DNA of 53,974 nt, taken from a virus (taxonomy: Duplodnaviria > Caudoviricetes). Numbering within the stretch: position 1 is the first letter of the stretch; every line of letters begins with the position of its first letter. The position numbers and the translations under genes are program-made. The DNA is taken from IMG/VR virus record IMGVR_UViG_3300044648_000096, positions 1 through 53,974 of that record; one strand, 5' to 3'. The notes beneath the pieces are model-generated. The model was not told the origin of the DNA. It searched no databases and was given only the letters and a program-made list of their open reading frames with translations. Shown here piece after piece: positions 3,508-38,798 of this stretch.

Positions 3508-3662
3508 GAAAAATATTAGGACACGGAATTATAGCTTTTATTTTCATTTTTATTTTTGTAATGACAGTTATTACTTGTGGGCTAAATGTAGCGGTATTGT
3601 CATTTATAACCACGTTTGTATTAATTGGCTTAATAGGCGTAGCGGTACATTTAATTAACTAA
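3504..3662 (+). CDS. Small membrane protein (52 aa, two hydrophobic segments); not in ORF track
   Basis: MRKILGHGIIAFIFIFIFVMTVITCGLNVAVLSFITTFVLIGLIGVAVHLIN*. ATGA overlap at 3504; stop lies 1 bp before the ATG at 3664. Confidence 0.7.
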   Translation: MRKILGHGIIAFIFIFIFVMTVITCGLNVAVLSFITTFVLIGLIGVAVHLIN

Positions 3663-3663
3663 T

Positions 3664-4236
3664 ATGGCAAAGCGGATGAGCATAGCTGATCTTGAAAAGA
3701 TGGGATTAGTAGATATGGGTAATGGTGTTTATGCTCCAAAAGGTAGCGTAAAACCTAATACTGTTAAAAGAACGATTCAAAGACGAATAAACGTTCCCGC
3801 CGAACTAGTGGCAAAGCAACCCGTTATAGAAACCCCTAATTTCACCATAAATAGCCCCGTAGAGTCATTTTTAACCATTGATGGGGTTGTGGCAGGGCTA
3901 AATGGAAAAGACGGGTTAATGAGGTCGCATTGGACAAATATCAAAAAGATCAAAGACCTATACTGCGCTATTATTACTCAACACATGAAAGAGGGGAAAG
4001 TTCGCAAACACGGCGGGGAAGTAATTATAAATTACGTTGGCTATAAGTCTTTATTGATGGACTGGGATAACTTTTGCGCCAGCTTTAAACATATTGGCGA
4101 TAGTTTGGAAAAGTGCGGGGTAATACTAAAAGATAACCCCAAGATCGTTCGTAAGTTTCTGCCGGAACAAATCAAGTGTAAGCGTTCAGAACAAAAAGTA
4201 ATTGTAATAATTTCAGATTATGTTCCGTCCACATAA
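3664..4236 (+). CDS. RusA-like Holliday junction resolvase
   Basis: MDWDNFCASFKHIGDSLEKCGVILKDN matches the RusA DxDN...K...D.L...G.I.DD motif. Confidence 0.75.
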   Translation: MAKRMSIADLEKMGLVDMGNGVYAPKGSVKPNTVKRTIQRRINVPAELVAKQPVIETPNFTINSPVESFLTIDGVVAGLNGKDGLMRSHWTNIKKIKDLYCAIITQHMKEGKVRKHGGEVIINYVGYKSLLMDWDNFCASFKHIGDSLEKCGVILKDNPKIVRKFLPEQIKCKRSEQKVIVIISDYVPST

Positions 4237-4944: not shown

Positions 4945-5155
4945 AAATGATGATATAAGCCATTTACACACCCACGAATTGACTTATCCATCTGGACAAA
5001 AAGAAACGTGTCAAGTGATTTATATGGACTTATACGAATACGATAACAGTGGGAAAAAAATAATGAAAGGAAAAGCTTTTGTTGAAACTAAACGCGGTAT
5101 ATATTATGAGATTAAACATGAATATTTGAAGAAGCTTGGGTTACAAAAAGAATAG
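4937..5155 (+). CDS. Hypothetical protein
   Basis: 72-aa ORF in the operon. Confidence 0.6.
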   Translation: MNKNDDISHLHTHELTYPSGQKETCQVIYMDLYEYDNSGKKIMKGKAFVETKRGIYYEIKHEYLKKLGLQKE

Positions 5156-5504
5156 TAAAAAGATGAGGGAAAGATATGTTCTTTGTGGAGAGCAGTGCTT
5201 TTACTGCCTTACACCAAAGGAATTTAGGCTTATAACAATAGATCATTTTTTCCCGCGCAGCTTACAAAACAGCGGAACTGGCAATAGAGTATTTGCTTGT
5301 AGGGAGTGTAACAACATGAAGCAATCTTTAAATGTTTACGAATTCAGGGAACGGATGTGCAAAGAAGCCACTAAGTATATGAAAAGAGACACAATAAGAA
5401 AATTACCAAATCACATTAAAAATCTTAGGCTAGAATATTACAAAAGACTTATTGTTAATTGCAATAAAATACTTAAAATGAATCCATCAGAATTTTGTTT
5501 TTAA
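5136..5504 (+). CDS. HNH endonuclease (likely start ATG 5163)
   Basis: CFYC...TIDHFFPRS...N..FACRECNNMK. Confidence 0.85.
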   Translation: MGYKKNSKKMRERYVLCGEQCFYCLTPKEFRLITIDHFFPRSLQNSGTGNRVFACRECNNMKQSLNVYEFRERMCKEATKYMKRDTIRKLPNHIKNLRLEYYKRLIVNCNKILKMNPSEFCF

Positions 5505-5659: not shown

Positions 5660-5958
5660 ATATTGGCGACAAATATATTGACACCTATAATGAATTTAAT
5701 AATCCTAATTTTAACTTTATAGAAGGGCAATCTTATGACCCCGAAAAGTCCATTGTTGAAATAGTGGATATAACGCCAACATCGGTTTGTGTAAAATTAA
5801 GATCAAGACCGCTTAGGATTATGTACAAAGACGGCGGGGGAATATCTAAACCACTGGACAATTATAATCAGTGGTTTAAGCTCAAAAGAGAACATGAAGA
5901 AGAAATAGGATTTCACTTTAGATTTACAAAATCAGTAAATAATAATCAAACCAAATAA
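5656..5958 (+). CDS. Hypothetical protein
   Basis: 100-aa ORF in the operon. Confidence 0.6.
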   Translation: MNIGDKYIDTYNEFNNPNFNFIEGQSYDPEKSIVEIVDITPTSVCVKLRSRPLRIMYKDGGGISKPLDNYNQWFKLKREHEEEIGFHFRFTKSVNNNQTK

Positions 5959-5979
5959 TAATTACAAAATCTGTAAACT

Positions 5980-6501
5980 ATGAATCAAGATCAAAAACGC
6001 CAAGAATGGCGAGAAGCAAGACTAAAAGAACTTCAAAATCTGCCAATAGACGAATCATTCTCTATCCCGGCGGGACTTATCATTCCATTTGGAGATAACA
6101 TTCTCTTAAAGGAAGTAATGCAGGGAGAAATCAAATCCAAAAGCGGTATAATCACTAAAGTCCCTGCATCTAAAACAATCGGCGCATCCGTTGGATTAGT
6201 AATGGGCATTGGTGAGGAAGTTACAATCCCTGTACATTTAGGAATGAAAGTGTATTACGAACCAACTACAATGCTTAGGGTTTATCACAACGGGGATGAG
6301 TATATCCAAATGTCACAGCACTTGATTTTTGGAGCCGTACCACCTGAGACTTACCTAGAAGCTTATGTACCAGATTCTATCGCGCTTCGCCGGGAATCAA
6401 GACAAACCAATATGGCTAAGGTAGACGCTCAAGAAGAAGAAATCTTAAAAGAGTCGATTGAAACCAACACTCCTGTTGAAATAATAAAAAACAGACAATA
6501 G
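5980..6501 (+). CDS. groES: GroES/Cpn10-like co-chaperonin with terminal extensions
   Basis: IIPFGDNILLK...KSKSGII...GLVMGIG...LGMKVYY follows the Cpn10 pattern. Confidence 0.75.
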   Translation: MNQDQKRQEWREARLKELQNLPIDESFSIPAGLIIPFGDNILLKEVMQGEIKSKSGIITKVPASKTIGASVGLVMGIGEEVTIPVHLGMKVYYEPTTMLRVYHNGDEYIQMSQHLIFGAVPPETYLEAYVPDSIALRRESRQTNMAKVDAQEEEILKESIETNTPVEIIKNRQ

Positions 6502-6556
6502 TTTGTAACCTTTTATCAAAACATTCGTTTAAGTAAGTAGCAAAAACAAAACTTAA

Positions 6557-6958
6557 ATGAAAAAGATAATTGTAATTACATCCGTAATGTTTAGTTGTAA
6601 TAAGGATAAAAAAGTTATTTATTCCCCGCCGATTAGGGATAAAATGCCTTACGGAAAGGTTAGCGTTTGGTCGCCTTTCGGCGGGGACACAACACTTAAA
6701 TCCGATCTTACACTTACTCACTATTACACCGAAAAGAAAGATTCCTGTAATCTTTATTATTACGAATTAAGCTACCCTATTTGGAGTGAATACGACTATA
6801 ATCATTGCGTTAATGAATGTGGTTATAATAAGGACACGCTGGTTATTAAAGACTTTAATTCTAATAAAAAAGCTATTTTTATAAGGAACTGGAACCACGA
6901 AAGACTCATAAGCGACATTGCTTCTAATGCAAAATTAACAAAGGCGGATGGAGGATAA
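6557..6958 (+). CDS. Hypothetical protein, possibly a degenerate lipoprotein
   Basis: MKKIIVITSVMFSC is lipobox-like, but the hydrophobic core is short. Confidence 0.5.
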   Translation: MKKIIVITSVMFSCNKDKKVIYSPPIRDKMPYGKVSVWSPFGGDTTLKSDLTLTHYYTEKKDSCNLYYYELSYPIWSEYDYNHCVNECGYNKDTLVIKDFNSNKKAIFIRNWNHERLISDIASNAKLTKADGG

Positions 6959-6999
6959 CGTACCGTGTGCAGGCTGAATGCGGTCATTTTGAGCCTTGC

Positions 7000-7128
7000 G
7001 GCTAACGGTTGCAAGTATGGCAAGGCAGGGATTAAGAGTACTGACCTGTCAAACCGTGATAAAGTAAATTAGAAGTACTCTGTTAGCATACAGAACACGC
7101 CCTTGCTTTGCTATACTTGTTGTTATAG
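7000..7128. repeat. attC-like recombination hairpin 1
   Basis: GGCTAAC(7000-7006), arm CAAGTATGGCAAGGCAGGG(7012-7030), arm CCCTTGCTTTGCTATACTTG(7100-7119), GTTATAG(7122-7128). Confidence 0.7.
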
Positions 7129-7150
7129 GGTGTTTTTAGTTCAGTCAAAA

Positions 7151-7477
7151 ATGGAAACAATAGTAAAAAGAGAAGAAATTACAGAAGAAACATACCGTGA
7201 AATATTGGATGTAGAAACTCATCATAACCACGAAATTATTAAGGATGATAACGGGACTTTAAGATGGAAAGAAAATCCAACTGTAAGCCATTATTTAAAA
7301 AATATATCACTAAATGATTTGTGTCCGCTATTAATGACACTTGGGTATGGTAAAAACTCAGAAGTTTATAGAAAACTTTATCGTGATATGGGATATTCAT
7401 TATTTGGGTATTGGGAAATATTTTTTTGGGAAGCAAATAACGAAGATGCTTCGGAGTACGTTCCAAATGCCCTATAA
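7151..7477 (+). CDS. Cassette-borne hypothetical protein (108 aa, METIVKREE...)
   Basis: ATG at 7151. TAA stop overlaps the TAAC core at 7475-7478. Flanked by a 14-bp inverted repeat at 7122-7135/7465-7478. Confidence 0.75.
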   Translation: METIVKREEITEETYREILDVETHHNHEIIKDDNGTLRWKENPTVSHYLKNISLNDLCPLLMTLGYGKNSEVYRKLYRDMGYSLFGYWEIFFWEANNEDASEYVPNAL

Positions 7478-7857
7478 CGTTTTCGGGCTTGGCGCAGTTA
7501 CTTTAACTTTTTGAGCGAAGGAAATTTTAAAAACTAAAAAAAATATGAATAACGAAGCAAAAGAAAAATTAAGCAAACACGGGATTGAAATGACAGACTT
7601 CATTTCATCATCTGGATATGAAGCAGTAAAACAGCTTTTAGAAAATCAACTCATTGAGCGAGACAGATTACTTAATGCGCTGGACGGACTATTGAATAAA
7701 AACGAGGGTAGCGGATGCCCTATGTGTGATAATGGCAAATTAAGGAACGCAGGCAAGGAGCATTGGGACGATTGCGTTTGGAATAATGCCCGTGTTGAGT
7801 ACGAATGGGTGTTGGCAAAAAAAGTTGAAGTAATTGCTCGCCAAGCCCGTGTTAGTG
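7472..7857. repeat. Giant attC-like hairpin 2 (~380 bp, loop contains a gene 5' half)
   Basis: CTATAAC(7472-7478), 30-nt arm 7484-7513, complementary arm 7816-7849, GTTAGTG(7851-7857). Confidence 0.7.
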
Positions 7858-8024
7858 GTTCGTTGCCGCCTGACGGACTTGTTAATGTTTACGAAAACTG
7901 TTATGAGGCTTTAAAGACTTTAATAGTTGACAGGTGGAGTGCAGATAACGTTAATAAGATTCAAGCCTTAGACAAGAAAATTATTGAGGCAAAACAGAAG
8001 TATTTAGGCGGCAATGACCACTAA
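7545..8024 (+). CDS. Chimeric cassette protein (102 aa loop-encoded plus 57 aa cassette-encoded)
   Basis: Reads in frame through GTT 7851 (RVSGSLP). Stop overlaps TAAC 8022-8025. Contains a CxxC...H...C motif. Confidence 0.75.
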   Translation: MNNEAKEKLSKHGIEMTDFISSSGYEAVKQLLENQLIERDRLLNALDGLLNKNEGSGCPMCDNGKLRNAGKEHWDDCVWNNARVEYEWVLAKKVEVIARQARVSGSLPPDGLVNVYENCYEALKTLIVDRWSADNVNKIQALDKKIIEAKQKYLGGNDH

Positions 8025-8078
8025 CATATATTATATCTAGCAATAAACAAAACACGCTAATTATAAGTTAATTAAATT

Positions 8079-8951
8079 ATGAATATTCCGAAGTATATAG
8101 AAAGGTATCGGAAAGACTTAGAGTTTTTAAGATACCGCCAAAACTCAGTAGAATCATACGTTTCTTGCGTAACGGTATTTCTTAACCATTTTATTAACAA
8201 AAAAGATCACGAACACATAAACGAATCAGAAATAAAAGACTTCTTATATCAATTCAAAGAACACAACACACAAAGAGCATATCACTCTGCTGTAAAGGCT
8301 TTTTATAAATATACTTGTAAGCAACCAAATAAATTCAAATGGATTCAGTATTGTAAACGCAATCGTAAATTACCAATAGTTCTTTCCCCCGCCGAAATGC
8401 AAAGAATTATATTCTCATGCACTAATCTTAAGCACAAAACCATCATTTGCTTAATGTACTCAACAAGCATTAGGGTAAGTGAAGTAATAAGCCTTAAAAT
8501 AGCAGATATAGACCCGGATAGAATGATTATAATGATTCGTGACGCTAAGGGCGGGAAAGATCGGCAAGTGCCGCTAGACCCAATTCTATTAGAATTAATA
8601 CGCGAATATTACAACCAATATTCTCCCGCCGAATATTTATTTAACGGGCAATTTGACTTGAAATATTCTACGCGAAGCATCGCTCAATTTTTACAAAAAT
8701 ACACAGATGCGGCGGGGATAAATAAACGAGTTTATCCACACCTAATCCGCCATTCATCAGCAACACATTTACTAGAAGCTGGACTAGATTTAAGCATTAT
8801 CCAAAAAGTTCTTGGTCACAACTCAATACAAACAACTCAAGGTTACACTCATATAAGCAATACGTTAATAAGCAGAGTTAAAACCCCGCTCAGTTATATT
8901 ACAATTCCTGTAAAAAATCAAATAGAAAGAAATAATTTACAACTTGTGTAA
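8079..8951 (+). CDS. Tyrosine recombinase, integron-integrase-like/XerD family with N-terminal SAM-like domain
   Basis: Catalytic set intact: SIR, KGGKDR, HLIRH, LGH, GYTH; also LPIVLS. No obvious IntI-specific insertion before HxxR. Confidence 0.9.
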   Translation: MNIPKYIERYRKDLEFLRYRQNSVESYVSCVTVFLNHFINKKDHEHINESEIKDFLYQFKEHNTQRAYHSAVKAFYKYTCKQPNKFKWIQYCKRNRKLPIVLSPAEMQRIIFSCTNLKHKTIICLMYSTSIRVSEVISLKIADIDPDRMIIMIRDAKGGKDRQVPLDPILLELIREYYNQYSPAEYLFNGQFDLKYSTRSIAQFLQKYTDAAGINKRVYPHLIRHSSATHLLEAGLDLSIIQKVLGHNSIQTTQGYTHISNTLISRVKTPLSYITIPVKNQIERNNLQLV

Positions 8952-8954
8952 ATT

Positions 8955-9206
8955 TTAAGAAAGCAATTTATTTAAAAGTCCTATTGCTGTTTGCCATTCA
9001 TCTACTGAATAACAATTATCTTCCCCATCAATCGTATAGCACTCTACCTTCCTTACAAGCCTTTGAATAAACAAATACTTAGTAATGCAACATTCGTCTA
9101 CCAGATCGCCTGATTTAGCTTTATTGAGCATATTATCAGCGATATTGGTAAGCTTACATTTAGCGGTAAGCACAATAGAGATTTGTTGATCTTGGTAGGT
9201 TGCCAT
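8955..9206 (-). CDS. Cys-rich hypothetical late protein
   Basis: 83-aa ORF at the end of the late operon, convergent with the recombinase. Confidence 0.65.
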   Translation of the reverse strand: MATYQDQQISIVLTAKCKLTNIADNMLNKAKSGDLVDECCITKYLFIQRLVRKVECYTIDGEDNCYSVDEWQTAIGLLNKLLS

Positions 9207-9210
9207 TTAA

Positions 9211-9720
9211 TTATTGTATGATATTAATATCAGCGTAAGCACCTTTTAATACTGCTCCAACCGCGCCGGAAGAACTCAAGTAACTAATTTTAATCACATC
9301 GTTCTGTCTTAAATTACTCAGCTTAAAGCTAAACGGAACTGCTGTCCATGTTGCCCCGGCGATTGCCGTAGCTGCCGTTACCTTCATGGTGATGTTAGCC
9401 ACCGCCACGCCATTCTTAAGAACAGAAGCGGTTATAAGGTGAACATCCGTAGCGTAAATTTGAGCTACTGTTTCAAACTCAGAAGTGTTTGTTGTAGCTA
9501 TTGAATCCGATATGGTTAATACCGTCCAGTCATATCCTACCCCGGCAGTATTAATTGAATCAGAAGATGTATCTAAACGCTGTACAGTTACTTCCTTAAC
9601 AGAAACAACATTAACGCCATCAATGGTGCGCCCTGCGCCAGCATCCCCTGTGGCTCCGCGCTGTACTGTTATGCTGTTGCAACCAGCCCCGGCATTACTA
9701 TCTGAACATCCACATCCCAT
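9211..9720 (-). CDS. Putative virion structural/fibre-associated protein
   Basis: MGCGC start, short G-X-Y stretch (GATGDAGA), beta-rich C-terminus. Confidence 0.6.
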   Translation of the reverse strand: MGCGCSDSNAGAGCNSITVQRGATGDAGAGRTIDGVNVVSVKEVTVQRLDTSSDSINTAGVGYDWTVLTISDSIATTNTSEFETVAQIYATDVHLITASVLKNGVAVANITMKVTAATAIAGATWTAVPFSFKLSNLRQNDVIKISYLSSSGAVGAVLKGAYADINIIQ

Positions 9721-10641: not shown

Positions 10642-10736
10642 AAGCTATATTAACATAACGCTGAATTATAGCGGGTTTTGTCCGATTGATTTTAAACAGC
10701 TTTATTCAAGAAACCCGCTATAATAAGTCGTTATGT
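10642..10736. repeat. 29-bp direct repeat copy 1 with AAC...GTT hairpin
   Basis: AAGCTATATTAACATAACGCTGAATTATA at 10642-10670. ACATAACG/CGTTATGT outer stem plus a perfect 14-bp inner stem (10665-10678/10711-10724). Confidence 0.8.
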
Positions 10737-11606: not shown

Positions 11607-11660
11607 AAGCTATATTAACATAACGCTGAATTATAAACAGATTTATAATTTTCGTTATGT
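11607..11660. repeat. 29-bp direct repeat copy 2 with AAC...GTT hairpin
   Basis: Same 29-mer at 11607-11635. ACATAACG(11618-11625)/CGTTATGT(11653-11660) plus a 9-bp inner stem. Confidence 0.8.
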
Positions 11661-11700
11661 GAGTAAATAGCCGTTTTAAAAATTTCATATTGTAAAAATA

Positions 11701-28929: not shown

Positions 28930-29678
28930 TTATCAAGTGTACTGTGCATTCCTAAATATAATCCTTGTCCCGCAAAAGGGTCAGAAAGTTTTTCTACAAT
29001 CATTCTGCGCTCTGACTCAGAAGGTACAGCATCCGTAGCCCTAGCATCAGCGCATAACTGTTCCCATTCGCGTTTGTGTCGATCAACTATTCCAATATCA
29101 ATTCCGCTTTTAATTCTGTTGCGTTTGTATTTCCACATACAAAATTCACCGATAGCTTCTAAGTGATTTTCTCCAACATAAGGGATTCCGTCACAATCAG
29201 TTTCTACCCCCAAATATTGAATAGTCACTTTTTGACCATCATAGTTGTTTAAAAAAATGATTTTGTTATCCTGAACTTCATATCTTACAAATCCAAAATT
29301 GACGGTATTAGATGATGTTTCTGTCCCGCCCAAATCCACGATCAAAAATGAAGATAAATCGTATTGATTAGCGAATGTACTCCCTACCTCTGCATTAAAA
29401 CAAAGAAATCCACGCTCTAAAATATCAGTACAGCAATCTTTCACATCGCCGAGTATCGCCACCTGCAAATACTCACAGTCGCATGGTAAGTCGGCGGTAC
29501 AGCCATCAATGGTCAATACGTCAACTTTCTTTTTCTTAGCGTAATAAGAACCTATTTTTTTCTCCGCCAATATCGCCCAATTTACAAACATAGGCGTATG
29601 CTTATTGTGCTGCAATCCTAAGTCATCCATAAGATTGACAAGAACGTTTTTTACTGATACTAATTTATTCTGGCTCAT
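28920..29678 (-). CDS. Tail tubular/ring protein (crAss-type)
   Basis: 252 aa with VTIQYLG...DGIPYV...EAI..F..WK; synteny. Confidence 0.65.
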   Translation of the reverse strand: MSQNKLVSVKNVLVNLMDDLGLQHNKHTPMFVNWAILAEKKIGSYYAKKKKVDVLTIDGCTADLPCDCEYLQVAILGDVKDCCTDILERGFLCFNAEVGSTFANQYDLSSFLIVDLGGTETSSNTVNFGFVRYEVQDNKIIFLNNYDGQKVTIQYLGVETDCDGIPYVGENHLEAIGEFCMWKYKRNRIKSGIDIGIVDRHKREWEQLCADARATDAVPSESERRMIVEKLSDPFAGQGLYLGMHSTLDNWL

Positions 29679-37176: not shown

Positions 37177-37193
37177 ATTGGTTATTAATTTGA

Positions 37194-38798
37194 TTACTGA
37201 ATTAATTGATCTGTTGGTACAGCAAAGAATTCGCTGATAGTTACCGCAGGGTCGCCACCACCAATATTCAAGTGCTGATAGAAAGCAATCATTTCATCGC
37301 CAGCATCAAACACTAAATCAGTAGTTCCAGCAGAATATACCGGGTATTCAGTTCCGTTTAAGAAACAAGTAACATTACCATTGATGTCAACCTTAACCCA
37401 CATCATAGCTGAAACAGCATCAGTGAAGTTTACGGCTGTATCAGTAGCAACAGTAGCAGCGTTATTTAAAATACCAAAGGTATAAACACTGTCGCCGTCA
37501 GCAGCACCACCGCCAATAGCGGCTAGGTCAGTATAGTCGTTGTAGTCAGCAGTGTAAACTGCTTTCTTACGGAAACCGAAGATAAACTGAGTGTCAGTCC
37601 AATCAGCAGCCACAACGCGGCAACCTACCATGAAAGGAGTCTTGCCAACGATAAACGACTGATCGCCTAATGTTTGCTGATTAGCAGATGTGTGAGAACC
37701 TTCGCCAGCAGTGTCATCTTGATCTAACAATAGACCAGCGGCAGCAAGAACCGGGGCAACAATAGTTTGAGTACCGATGTTTGTACGATTCATTGGGGTA
37801 TAACGAGATAACTGCCATCCTAATGTGTTGGCTGTACCTGTCGGAGCAGCACCTAGTGGGTCTTGGAACACGATAGGGGCATCAAACCACTCTTGCAGAG
37901 TAGAAGCATCACCTTCGTAAACCTGAACCATTAATTTGTGCATTACGCGCTCAAACGCTTTAAATCCTGTAAGGTTAGTTGTAGAAGAACCTGTTCCGTT
38001 GTCAGCATAAACAATCTGAACCTTTGGAACATAAGCTAATTGACCTTTTTGATTATGAGCAGCAGCAGTTGTCAAAGAAGTGATTGCAAATCCATCGTAA
38101 TTCTGACCACTAGTTGCGTAAGCACCAGCAGTAGTTTTAGGAGCAACACCACCAAGATAACCTGAAATAAGATTACCCCACATTTGGTCGATAACTGGTC
38201 GCCATTCAGCAAGATCAGCACCAACACCAAAGCTGTAAACAGCAGCGGTAGTTACTGAGTAGTTGTCATCAGCAAAGCCAGTTCCGTCAGCGTTAGTACA
38301 AGGACGAACAGTAGAAGCACCTAAACGGGCAGTCATACCTTGCTCTGGCACTGGATAATATCCAGCATCATCAGTGATAGAAAGTCCTGTTCCTAATAGC
38401 AAAGAAGCAGCAGTAACGAAGTTACCAGTGTCAGCATTGATCTTAGAAACTAATTCACCATGAATTGCTTCGCGCTGTAAAGCGGCAGTAGCACCCAAAG
38501 TTGTGATTACAGGAGGGGTTACATAAGTGTAACGCTTTAGAACTTCCTGTACACCATTACGGGTACGGTTAGTGTCGCCAATTTCGATTGTGTAAGCTGT
38601 ACTTGCTGTTGGAGTGTAAGATGTTGCGCCTACACTAACTACTTGTACTACTTCCGCACGATATTTTGTTTGGAGAATTGAGGTAATGTTTCTTTTGTCT
38701 GTACCACTCAGACCTGCGATGGTTACTACACCACCACTGCTTTGAATGTCACTCGCTGCCGAGCTTGCACTCAAAACTGATTCATTGATTGGTTTCAT
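37194..38798 (-). CDS. Structural protein (auxiliary capsid/decoration-like)
   Basis: 534 aa with strongly biased codons like the MCP; has its own promoter. Confidence 0.65.
   Translation of the reverse strand: MKPINESVLSASSAASDIQSSGGVVTIAGLSGTDKRNITSILQTKYRAEVVQVVSVGATSYTPTASTAYTIEIGDTNRTRNGVQEVLKRYTYVTPPVITTLGATAALQREAIHGELVSKINADTGNFVTAASLLLGTGLSITDDAGYYPVPEQGMTARLGASTVRPCTNADGTGFADDNYSVTTAAVYSFGVGADLAEWRPVIDQMWGNLISGYLGGVAPKTTAGAYATSGQNYDGFAITSLTTAAAHNQKGQLAYVPKVQIVYADNGTGSSTTNLTGFKAFERVMHKLMVQVYEGDASTLQEWFDAPIVFQDPLGAAPTGTANTLGWQLSRYTPMNRTNIGTQTIVAPVLAAAGLLLDQDDTAGEGSHTSANQQTLGDQSFIVGKTPFMVGCRVVAADWTDTQFIFGFRKKAVYTADYNDYTDLAAIGGGAADGDSVYTFGILNNAATVATDTAVNFTDAVSAMMWVKVDINGNVTCFLNGTEYPVYSAGTTDLVFDAGDEMIAFYQHLNIGGGDPAVTISEFFAVPTDQLIQ

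Follow-up and report, generated by a model that had tools for sequence, protein, structure and literature searches.

Organization of the locus

The window, that is, the whole 53,974-nt stretch of phage DNA analysed here, carries on its + strand a gene (8079-8951) predicted to encode a 290-aa Xer-like tyrosine recombinase, and four long stems, labeled A, D, C and B in their order along the DNA, are found upstream of it on the same strand within 7003-8025. Site A (7003-7125) is an attC-like hairpin (C-type) bounded by TAAC (7003-7006) and GTTA (7122-7125), between which run a 5-nt spacer, a left arm (7012-7030), a 70-nt loop, a right arm (7101-7119) and a 2-nt spacer; its stem includes three G-T pairs (G7019-T7112, G7024-T7107 and G7028-T7103). 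Stem D (7122-7478) is of an ORF-holding kind (B-type), in which a GTTA-led arm (7122-7135) pairs with a TAAC-ended arm (7465-7478). It shows two wobbles, T7131-G7469 and G7132-T7468, the latter at a fixed position, the 11th from the G of GTTA, and it holds ORF2 (7151-7477, + strand; 108 aa), the TAA stop of which lies within the TAAC core.

The second attC-like site, C (7475-7854, C-type), consists of TAAC (7475-7478), a GTTTT spacer (7479-7483), a left arm (7484-7512), a 306-nt loop, a right arm (7819-7849), T7850 and GTTA (7851-7854). Its wobbles are G7497-T7834, which falls in a fixed CAG/TTG motif, and T7504-G7827; in a homologue of this site from another metagenome (X4, see below) G7827 is replaced by A, giving a T-A pair. 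The loop contains the start of ORF3 (7545-8024, + strand; 159 aa), which has a CPMC...HW..C motif and a TAA stop within the TAAC core at 8022-8025. The last ORF-holding stem, B (7851-8025, B-type), pairs 7851-7873 with 8004-8025 (more fully, 7850/7851-7873 with 8004-8025/8026), and is marked by a wobble at the fixed position (G7862-T8015), another at G7872-T8005 and a bulged T7859. The array ends in an attI-like site (8022-8045, + strand), where a TAAC core is followed by a conserved A/T-rich motif, with the ATG of the recombinase 57 nt downstream.

ORF3 is a real gene, since the changes in its X4 homologue across 7589-7812 fall mostly in third codon positions. No Pfam, PHROG or NCBIfam family was matched by ORF1, ORF2 or ORF3, and relatives of ORF3 were found in viral contigs neither with a single-protein query nor with an alignment-based one; the alignment did reach one distant metagenome locus (1,095 nt), where the gene is shorter and long stems are absent. 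The window contained no tRNA or tmRNA and no Rfam family at gathering thresholds, with chance-level matches only in 6400-8200 (E >= 0.7), and 5900-9300 had no DNA match in the phage collection. A retron or other large structured RNA was rejected in the absence of a reverse transcriptase and of an Rfam match, as was a terminator role for the stems, the single weak terminator-like match on the + strand lying inside ORF3.

With G-T and A-C scored alike, the substitution mismatches of the four stems number three in A and two each in D, C and B, which makes nine G-T, no A-C and no transversions on the + strand (binomial p = 0.004). An earlier note on this DNA had claimed that every stem mismatch is G-T on this strand, and this is borne out, although it had counted seven such mismatches rather than nine. 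Three of the stems also have unpaired bases: the left arm of B contains a bulged T, C has two such bases in its right arm, and A, in the whole-hairpin fold, has one in its right arm. When the stems were compared with 200 dinucleotide-preserving shuffles of 6959-8078, the scores of C (44) and B (35) were reached by none of the shuffles, and these two are also the top separate-arm inverted repeats of the entire 54-kb window. The score of A (29) was reached by 16 of the 200 and is not significant alone, nor is that of D (24), which is close to the average of the shuffle maxima (24.7); stem D is accepted by virtue of the family architecture described below, whose rule 38 of the 39 ORF-holding stems follow, and not for its own score. 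With DNA parameters, the arm duplexes of the + strand are the stabler in all four cases, at -17.3 versus -14.4 kcal/mol for A, -10.7 versus -9.4 for D, -28.3 versus -25.5 for C and -24.2 versus -22.5 for B. The whole-hairpin fold of site A is not unusual relative to shuffles on either strand (z = -1.41 for + and -0.59 for -).

A Xer-like recombinase distinct from IntI

The recombinase matches the Phage_integrase catalytic domain (PF00589, 1.6e-38) and the N-terminal SAM-like domain (PF13495, 1.5e-07), and its nearest solved structures are the XerA-type chains 4a8e and 5hxy. The top-scoring model is the archaeal XerA-type NF040815 (212.7 against a cutoff of 220), and the two IntI models stay below their thresholds (TIGR02249, 156.4 bits with a cutoff of 265; NF011946, 108.4 with a cutoff of 435). 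In an alignment with VchIntIA (2a3v), residues 11-175 correspond to 10-178 and residues 204-272 to 250-318, leaving 28 residues opposite 71; about 43 residues are thus missing from the region of the IntI-specific I2 helix between the catalytic patches. Judged by its sequence, the protein is a Xer-like tyrosine recombinase and is not an IntI. PMC4792948 and PMC7790495 describe the IntI-specific insertion as thought to enable single-strand recombination, which IntI would have gained through this one extra helix. The product of 8079-8951 is probably the recombinase of the cassettes. A protelomerase site was considered and rejected, the enzyme being of the wrong size and a contiguous palindrome being absent.

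More than 1,700 close homologues of the recombinase were recovered from metagenomes. A single-protein query found no relatives in viral contigs. When one genome from each of 185,579 species was scanned with two peptide patterns, which can miss relatives, a single locus with a recombinase of more than 40% identity was obtained, on a 36.9-kb contig of a metagenome bin.

A conserved architecture with diverse sequences

In 11 related phage loci we observed two types of stem that alternate in a regular tiling upstream of a gene for a homologous Xer-like tyrosine recombinase, namely TAAC...GTTA hairpins that resemble attC and GTTA...TAAC stems that enclose an ORF. A cassette accordingly comprises an attC-like hairpin and the ORF after it, with the GTTA... 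and ...TAAC ends of the ORF unit pairing with each other. The hairpins have spacers of 5–7 nt on the TAAC side and 1–3 nt on the GTTA side. A scan for stems returned 70 matches upstream versus one downstream of the recombinase gene in the eight loci for which both flanks were available. TAAC and GTTA bound every hairpin in the 11 loci, in part by construction in that the scan required these cores, and they are invariant in an alignment of 16 sites.

The arms are strongly matched to their own partners. Hairpin arms scored 30.7 with their own partner versus 10.4 +/- 2.7 with the others, and the corresponding values for ORF-holding stems were 19.9 versus 9.0 +/- 2.2, while left arms of different sites share only 33–37% identity. 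RNAalifold applied to site A and 15 homologous sites predicted 17 pairs, 15 of them with compensatory changes. The phage sites thereby display the conserved structure and diverse sequence that characterize attC sites. Paired arms lie from 50 to more than 800 nt apart, and sequences that meet at any one TAAC node bear no relation to each other. Recombinase-controlled invertible segments were rejected as an explanation in view of the unrelated arms of different stems and a strand bias at odds with plain duplex repeats, and a shufflon was rejected for want of a common repeat.

Two of the loci, L007 and L014, have in common an 844-nt methyltransferase unit at 91.6% identity. The 7-mers at the ends of this unit differ between the loci and are complementary to each other within each locus. 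The ORF unit alone is shared and the adjacent hairpins differ, which suggests that exchange may also use the GTTA cores, or that hairpins may be replaced. Among the ten cassette ORFs scanned, six are DNA methyltransferases, and the cassette ORFs are typical accessory genes. The longest ORF lies on the + strand in 31 of the 38 ORF-holding units and on the - strand in six, in agreement with the suggestion of the earlier note that the ORFs are inverted and oriented with the recombinase gene.

Strand asymmetry

Across the family, mismatches on the + strand comprise 106 G-T versus 15 A-C, and removal of the fixed wobble leaves 33 versus 15 (p = 0.013). This wobble is present in 38 of 39 ORF-holding stems, and among 36 hairpins there are 35 G-T at alignment positions 12–14. 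The G-T excess is therefore mostly due to one wobble per stem at a fixed position, which is a site signature rather than tolerated drift. The + strand is also the stabler one in 29 of 32 short sites, by a mean of 1.78 kcal/mol (Wilcoxon p = 4e-5), the - strand being favoured in the other three. On this strand the arrays have a GC skew of +0.165 and the recombinase gene one of +0.005; all 11 arrays show a positive skew, which in 10 of them exceeds that of the adjoining recombinase gene. The proposal in the earlier note that the + strand is the one selected to fold thus stands insofar as this strand is G-T-rich, G-rich and better folding throughout the family, but it is qualified by the concentration of the excess in the fixed wobble and by the possibility of selection on RNA structure, the + strand being also the sense strand of the mRNA.

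PMC5027507 gives G:T enrichment and purine richness as known features of the strand that is recombined in canonical attC sites, and places the extrahelical bases of their bottom strand on the arm opposite the cleaved AAC. More G:T pairs and a lower folding energy would characterize the recombined strand of the phage sites only if this is the + strand. Extra bases were more frequent in the left arm than in the right (11 versus 8 in hairpins; 13 versus 3 in ORF-holding stems), and on the + strand it is the AAC arm that carries both the longer spacer and the bulged T, which is the geometry of the canonical top strand and not of the bottom one. If the G-T-rich + strand is the recombined strand, its extrahelical bases are therefore not opposite the cleaved AAC.

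The attI-like site and natural breakpoints

A conserved attI-like TAAC|ATA..ATAT closes the tiling, 55–60 nt before the start of the recombinase gene. In the window, the earlier note had placed such a site near 8031-8021, where the core indeed lies (8022-8031); of 10 related loci, seven keep the motif beside the recombinase gene and two more have a looser form of it.

Four sequencing runs, X1 to X4, were examined as contigs; X1 may be the sample of the window itself, and X2, X3 and X4 come from three other metagenome studies, in which the cassettes occur in other contexts and the contigs break at TAAC cores. The assembly graph of X1 has two branch points, 7474-7481 and 8022-8025, each with alternative flanks. 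At the latter the 4-nt core is bordered on its left and on its right by alternative sequences, and the alternative right flank starts like another hairpin site. A 56-nt junction unitig at the attI-like site has a depth, estimated from the graph, of 8.6 as against about 13.8 for its flanks. A 26-letter alternative flank had no exact match in viral contigs. An X2 contig with ORF3 carries a different sequence after 8025, an X3 contig has the first hairpin (7001-7130) with a different left flank, and 7475-8025 recurs in X4 with 34 differences and with a different flank at either end. The contigs of X1 to X4 showed no circle junction, empty site or joint of a cassette deletion, which is a weak absence in that contigs drop rare forms. 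The TAAC cores of the + strand are the positions of the natural breakpoints, which supports an integron-like reading.

Relationship to known systems

We consider it reasonably probable that the two cassettes of 7003-8078 form the array of an integron-like gene-capture system carried by the phage, which the recombinase of 8079-8951 would run and in which the + strand would be folded and recombined. Like a canonical integron with its IntI, attI and attC, it has a tyrosine recombinase gene beside a putative primary site and then an array of cassettes. Also shared are imperfect hairpins with AAC/GTT cores, an unpaired spacer, paired boxes, a bulged base and a variable loop, as are G:T mispairs and G richness on one strand, presumed crossovers at the cores and accessory cargo. 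As the earlier note proposed, the - strand would correspond to the integron 'top' strand; read in this direction, the recombinase gene is divergent, the attI-like core follows and each cassette ends in a hairpin. The order of the sites thus upholds the parallel, whereas the recombinase falls outside IntI, lacking the insertion and scoring below the IntI thresholds, and the extra bases are on the non-canonical arm, the AAC arm of the G-T-rich strand. Further differences are the phage ORFs, which are antisense to the attI-to-attC order, the single fixed-position G-T wobble, the cassette ends, which pair over 14–23 bp instead of a 7-bp R box, and the loops, which may include coding sequence, as does the 306-nt loop of site C.

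The same architecture was found in Polaribacter phage P12002L, around methyltransferase genes and a Mom-like gene. Attachment-site clusters of the attC kind (CALINs) have been described in this phage by Qi et al. 2023, who report that IntI1 recombined one P12002L site (PMC9892861), perhaps one of those seen here. P12002L thus shares its unit architecture with the present arrays and has Bacteroidota hosts, but the present arrays adjoin a cognate-looking recombinase and an attI-like site. Among the titles and abstracts listed by literature searches, which left most subscription journals uncovered, there were no phage arrays with a Xer-like recombinase, the closest report being PMC9892861.

Gene modules flanked by short conserved duplex Xer sites are known from Acinetobacter plasmids (Xer/dif modules; PMC7399989), and these resemble the phage cassettes in being discrete and bounded by Xer-type sites. 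They differ in that the phage arms are diverse, long-range and conserved in structure, and we found no conserved duplex site apart from the 4-nt cores and a 3-nt motif. A folded site used by a Xer-type enzyme does have a precedent. XerCD, which is of the Xer type and without the IntI insertion, acts on a hairpin folded from a single strand of the CTX phage that mimics the duplex site, and this filamentous, single-stranded phage thereby integrates at the host dif with host enzymes. The combination of an insertion-less enzyme and a folded hairpin is common to both, whereas the present case is a cassette array in a tailed phage. In phages of the T4 type, small accessory early ORFs flanked by stem-loops form promoter-early cassettes that are shuffled between phages, and these are thought to move via the homology of their conserved flanks. 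The flanks of the present cassettes share only the 4-nt cores and a recombinase is attached.

Alternative explanations

The coincidence of the G-T-rich strand with the transcript, in which G-U pairs are tolerated, raises the alternative that the stems are structures of the early-operon mRNA, serving processing, stability or translation control, and that the cassette-like variation arose by other means. Every strand asymmetry does point to the sense strand, and a simple scan revealed no convincing terminator between the ORFs and the recombinase gene. Furthermore, the ORF-holding stems pair the 5' leader of the ORF with its stop region already in the linear form, so that their covariation needs no circle. 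We nevertheless regard the mRNA explanation as unlikely: a conserved TAAC or GTTA core lies at the base of every stem, natural breakpoints fall within a few bases of these cores, and the arrays are confined to the DNA upstream of a single recombinase family, next to whose gene they terminate in a conserved site. The recombination by IntI1 reported for a P12002L site (PMC9892861) and the lack of a match to any RNA family in Rfam also speak against it.

Two other explanations invoke a recombinase acting on ordinary duplex DNA. The cores could belong to duplex Xer-type sites of modules comparable to Xer/dif, in which case the stems would be mere inverted repeats and the fixed G/A difference would reflect unlike half-sites rather than a wobble. 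The enzyme is indeed Xer-like and without the IntI insertion, G-T at a fixed position is what a half-site difference would produce, and possible exchange at both TAAC and GTTA cores fits a two-strand reaction. However, with paired arms 50 to more than 800 nt apart one duplex core site is impossible, the neighbours at TAAC nodes are unrelated while the arms covary and structure alone is kept, and the strand bias extends to the non-fixed mismatches, the folding energy and the GC skew, so that we hold this explanation to be decidedly unlikely. An ordinary lysogeny integrase is very improbable; in that case TAAC|ATA.. would be where the phage attaches, the alternative flanks at 8022-8025 would be host junctions and the hairpins would be unrelated elements. 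A recombinase gene beside an attachment site is the usual phage layout, and host integration would also give alternative sequences around a 4-nt core, but there is a second polymorphic junction with the same core 550 nt away (7474-7481), the alternative right flank starts like another hairpin site, and the two-pattern scan of one genome from each of 185,579 species, which can miss relatives, gave a single recombinase locus of more than 40% identity, on a metagenome-bin contig.

A possible mechanism

Under the integron-like reading, the + strand, the sense strand for ORFs and recombinase alike, would fold and be recombined, with crossovers at its TAAC cores and entry of cassettes at the attI-like TAAC beside the recombinase gene. 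The fixed-position wobble, with an optional bulged T beside it, may mark the + strand as the recombined one. If a cassette were excised as a circle, its two stems could stack on each other to give a single long duplex, at the centre of which the crossover point would lie. Since the ORFs face attI and the recombinase gene, we propose that they are expressed from upstream early promoters and not from an attI promoter. A more far-reaching proposal, which we put forward tentatively and think more doubtful than the array itself, is that these loci constitute a second, independent kind of phage integron. In it, a Xer-like recombinase without the IntI helix would act on sense-strand hairpins by reading the fixed wobble with or without the bulged T. 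The cassette site would be bipartite, with the full site existing only in the excised circle, and the system, to judge by the number of metagenomic homologues of the recombinase, would be widespread in phages of soil and water Bacteroidota, trading methyltransferases and other accessory genes. If so, one internal stretch of the cassette pairs with both of its ends, and the single strand would itself unite the two points of cleavage.

A large phage clade that keeps attC-like folded sites beside a helix-less recombinase would represent either another route to structure-specific recombination or an intermediate stage in the evolution of IntI. The orphan attC clusters of phages would likewise gain a cognate enzyme and an entry site, and the swapping of small accessory genes such as methyltransferases between phages would be explained. 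The features of strand asymmetry disagree here with the canonical ones, which makes the rule by which the strand is chosen directly testable at these loci.

Organization of the stem array upstream of the recombinase gene

The window is one linear record of a virus, 53,974 bases long. A + strand block of small early-type genes extends from its start to 8951, the last of them encoding a tyrosine recombinase of 290 aa (8079-8951, + strand); past this block the - strand carries genes of structural size. The 1 kb immediately upstream of the recombinase gene is occupied by four + strand stems. Stems A (7012-7030 with 7101-7119) and C (7484-7512 with 7819-7849) are hairpins, and stems D (7122-7135 with 7465-7478) and B (7851-7873 with 8004-8025) each enclose an ORF. 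A 4-nt core delimits every stem, and in A and C the order is TAAC, 5-nt spacer, left arm, loop, right arm, 1-2-nt spacer and GTTA. Given that D and B begin at the GTTA of the preceding hairpin and finish at the next TAAC, with the ORF inside, the region is tiled as an alternation of hairpin A, ORF unit D, hairpin C and ORF unit B. Each hairpin's right arm is continuous with the left arm of the ORF unit that follows, and the combined stretch (7101-7135 and 7819-7873) pairs with both ends of its own cassette. The tiling ends at an attI-like (putative cassette entry) site on the + strand, 57 nt upstream of the recombinase ATG, where an A/T-rich motif comes after the TAAC at 8022-8025. ORF2 (7151-7477, + strand) and ORF3 (7545-8024, + strand) lie in this 1 kb, and their TAA stops fall inside TAAC cores (7475-7478 and 8022-8025), the core thus doubling as stop codon. 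Family searches returned no match for either ORF, and a simple scan between the cassettes and the recombinase gene recovered no convincing terminator.

Stems C and B scored above the best inverted repeat in all 200 shuffles and are the top two separate-arm repeats of the whole window. The score of stem A was matched by 16 of the 200 shuffles, that of stem D was at chance level, and the whole fold of hairpin A was not unusual relative to shuffles. A full-window scan outside 7003-8025 drew in 5 weak matches, all devoid of the wobble pattern. With G-T and A-C weighted alike in the scoring, all nine substitution mismatches in the window stems were G-T on the + strand, with no A-C mismatches or transversions (p = 0.004). 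The earlier note's claim that all stem mismatches are of this type therefore stands, with its count of 7 corrected to 9. The comparison of folding energy by strand that it proposed also favored the + strand, whose arm duplexes were more stable in all four stems, by 1.3 to 2.9 kcal/mol.

Conservation of the cassette system in related loci

Searches with the recombinase yielded 1,763 homologues at E <= 1e-30 from 2,302 candidates, the best 120 of which are 57-75% identical and occur on contigs of up to 76 kb. We retrieved 18 viral-contig and 6 genome-contig loci, and analysed the 10 with usable upstream sequence (L005-L007, L009-L011, L013-L015 and L023) together with the window. The alternating tiling was present in all 11 loci, which contained 36 hairpins together with 39 to 41 stems around an ORF, and a stem scan of the 8 loci with both flanks gave 70 matches upstream of the recombinase gene as against 1 downstream. 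Arm identity between sites is 33-37%, and each arm pairs with its own partner, the own-partner versus other-partner scores (cores excluded) being 30.7 versus 10.4 for hairpins and 19.9 versus 9.0 for ORF stems. For 16 hairpins of similar length, RNAalifold predicted 17 pairs, 15 of them with compensatory changes, and one column pair of this alignment is G-U in 11 of the 16. In 7 of the 10 loci the recombinase gene is preceded, at a distance of 55-60 nt, by the motif TAAC followed by ATA..ATAT, and 2 more have a looser form of it. The window stems are part of a family-wide, structured cassette system. A complication is that the longest ORF is on the - strand in 6 of 38 ORF units. The array of the distant relative L015, whose recombinase is 31% identical, carries four copies of a segment of ~150-250 nt (733-942, 2083-2366, 2729-2983 and 3657-3980), with translated ORFs 84-100% identical.

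Natural breakpoints and apparent mobility of cassettes

The cassette system is apparently mobile, as indicated by Logan contigs from four metagenome runs of four studies (X1-X4) that were compared with 6400-9000. In X1, possibly the source sample of the window, the graph branches at 7474-7481 (8-nt shared core; junction unitig of 52 nt with a depth of 5.4 versus ~13.7 alongside) and at 8022-8025 (4-nt shared core; unitig of 56 nt with a depth of 8.6), with alternative sequences on the left side of the former core and on both sides of the latter. In X2 the sequence after 8025 differs from the window, and in X3 7001-7130 is present with a different left flank. A 1,257-nt contig of X4 contains 7475-8025 with 34 differences, between flanks that are unrelated on both sides. 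These differences are mainly in third codon positions within 7589-7812, with almost none in the stem-holding 7475-7512 and 7813-8025; one of them, G7827 to A, replaces a wobble with a T-A pair. The contigs of the four runs showed neither a circle junction nor a deletion joint. A long X1 contig has one opposite-strand joint of ~6536 to 9000, whose short side is only 34 letters, at the edge of the compared stretch; it is probably an alignment artefact, the other reading being an inversion.

Two related loci, L007 and L014, with recombinases respectively 63% and 40% identical to the query, have in common an 844-nt methyltransferase unit at 91.6% identity. The 7-mers at the ends of this unit are different between the loci and complementary within each. 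Given that the ORF unit alone is common to them and the adjacent hairpins differ, either exchange would also take place at GTTA cores or the hairpins may have been replaced.

Strand asymmetry of the sites

Across the family we counted 106 G-T and 15 A-C mismatches. Most of this excess is supplied by a single wobble at a fixed position: 38 of 39 ORF stems have it at position 11, counted from the G of GTTA, and the 36 hairpins have 35 G-T mismatches at alignment positions 12-14. A bulged T is frequent just 5' of it (e.g. T-CAG opposite TTG). Hence, the G-T bias is largely a signature of the site rather than tolerated drift; in the window 4 of the 9 wobbles are of the fixed-position kind. The earlier note had taken the bias to mean that the + strand is selected to fold, and this inference has a precedent: Nivina et al. 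2016 (PMC5027507) report that in canonical attC sites the bottom strand, which is the recombined one, has more G:T mispairs (1.24 versus 0.39), lower folding energy and purine richness. The + strand is also favored by mismatches other than the fixed wobble (33 G-T versus 15 A-C, p = 0.013), by its greater stability in 29 of 32 short hairpins, and by the GC skew of the arrays (+0.165, the same-strand value for the recombinase gene being +0.005). It is plausible, though unproven, that recombination acts on the + strand. Of the A-C mismatches in hairpins, 8 of 9 are at positions 3-5, and this cluster may be a second conserved feature.

Relationship to canonical integrons and a possible mechanism

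The window recombinase falls under both thresholds for the integron integrase IntI and is ~43 residues short at the IntI-specific segment; it is not an IntI, and XerA-type proteins are its best matches. On account of its integrase, the system does not qualify as a member of the integron family proper. Supposing that cassettes enter at the TAAC beside the recombinase gene, with crossovers at the cores, the order on the - strand is a divergent recombinase gene, the attI-like site and cassettes each ending in a hairpin, which is the site order of a canonical integron, but with antisense ORFs. On the + strand a hairpin precedes each ORF and the attI-like site directly adjoins the last one, such that neither choice of strand yields the canonical ORF-then-attC array. 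The integron-like antisense layout put forward earlier is thus supported by site order alone, independently of the G-T argument. Relative to the hairpin's own asymmetry, the ORFs are placed like those of canonical cassettes, and the inversion concerns how ORFs and hairpins are oriented to the attI-like site and recombinase gene. In canonical attC sites the extrahelical bases are on the opposite arm of the bottom strand (PMC5027507), whereas here it is the AAC arm of the + strand that carries the bulged T and longer spacer.

We propose that each TAAC node of the folded + strand would be a binding site for the recombinase; in such a node the core and spacer are flanked by an ORF stem, with the wobble motif after 8 bp, and by a hairpin arm, with that motif after 10-11 bp. 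A cut at each of two successive TAAC cores would set free a circle, in which the two stems could stack into one ~50-bp duplex with the crossover point in its middle. Insertion would be the reverse reaction at the attI-like site, and transcription from upstream would pass through the cassettes into the recombinase gene.

Qi et al. 2023 (PMC9892861) report clusters of attC sites without an integrase from phages, including Polaribacter phage P12002L, and the recombination of one P12002L site by IntI1. Stems of matching architecture surround methyltransferase genes and a Mom-like gene in P12002L, on the strand that is sense for the ORFs; they need not be the sites assayed in that study. In two separate clusters of cassettes of this phage, an identical ~70-nt sequence comes after the final TAAC (29150-29240 and 37180-37262). 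The closest cultured relative of the recombinase is from Polaribacter phage Leef_1 (37.6% identity), where the stem scan recovered no more than a single stem per type, both approximately at the score threshold. In the literature searched, no account turned up of arrays like these next to a Xer-like recombinase.

Further features of the locus

Genes for an HNH endonuclease and a GroES-like co-chaperonin (5136-5504 and 5980-6501) are directly upstream of the array. The intergenic 6502-6555, before ORF1, recurs in a 3,585-nt X1 contig with 4 differences and 4 gaps, amidst unrelated sequence on both sides, and may be a shared promoter or leader module. ORF3 has a conserved cysteine/histidine core in common with the metagenomic proteins P0005 and P0006, and its residues ~92-110, which encode stem arms, are wholly unlike those of a 62%-identical homologue. 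Two hairpins in the intergenic region at ~10.5-11.7 kb (10653-10736 and 11613-11665) have in common an 18-nt stretch, TAAC...GTTA-like flanks and perfect stems free of the wobble motif, and could be operators, terminators or stray sites.
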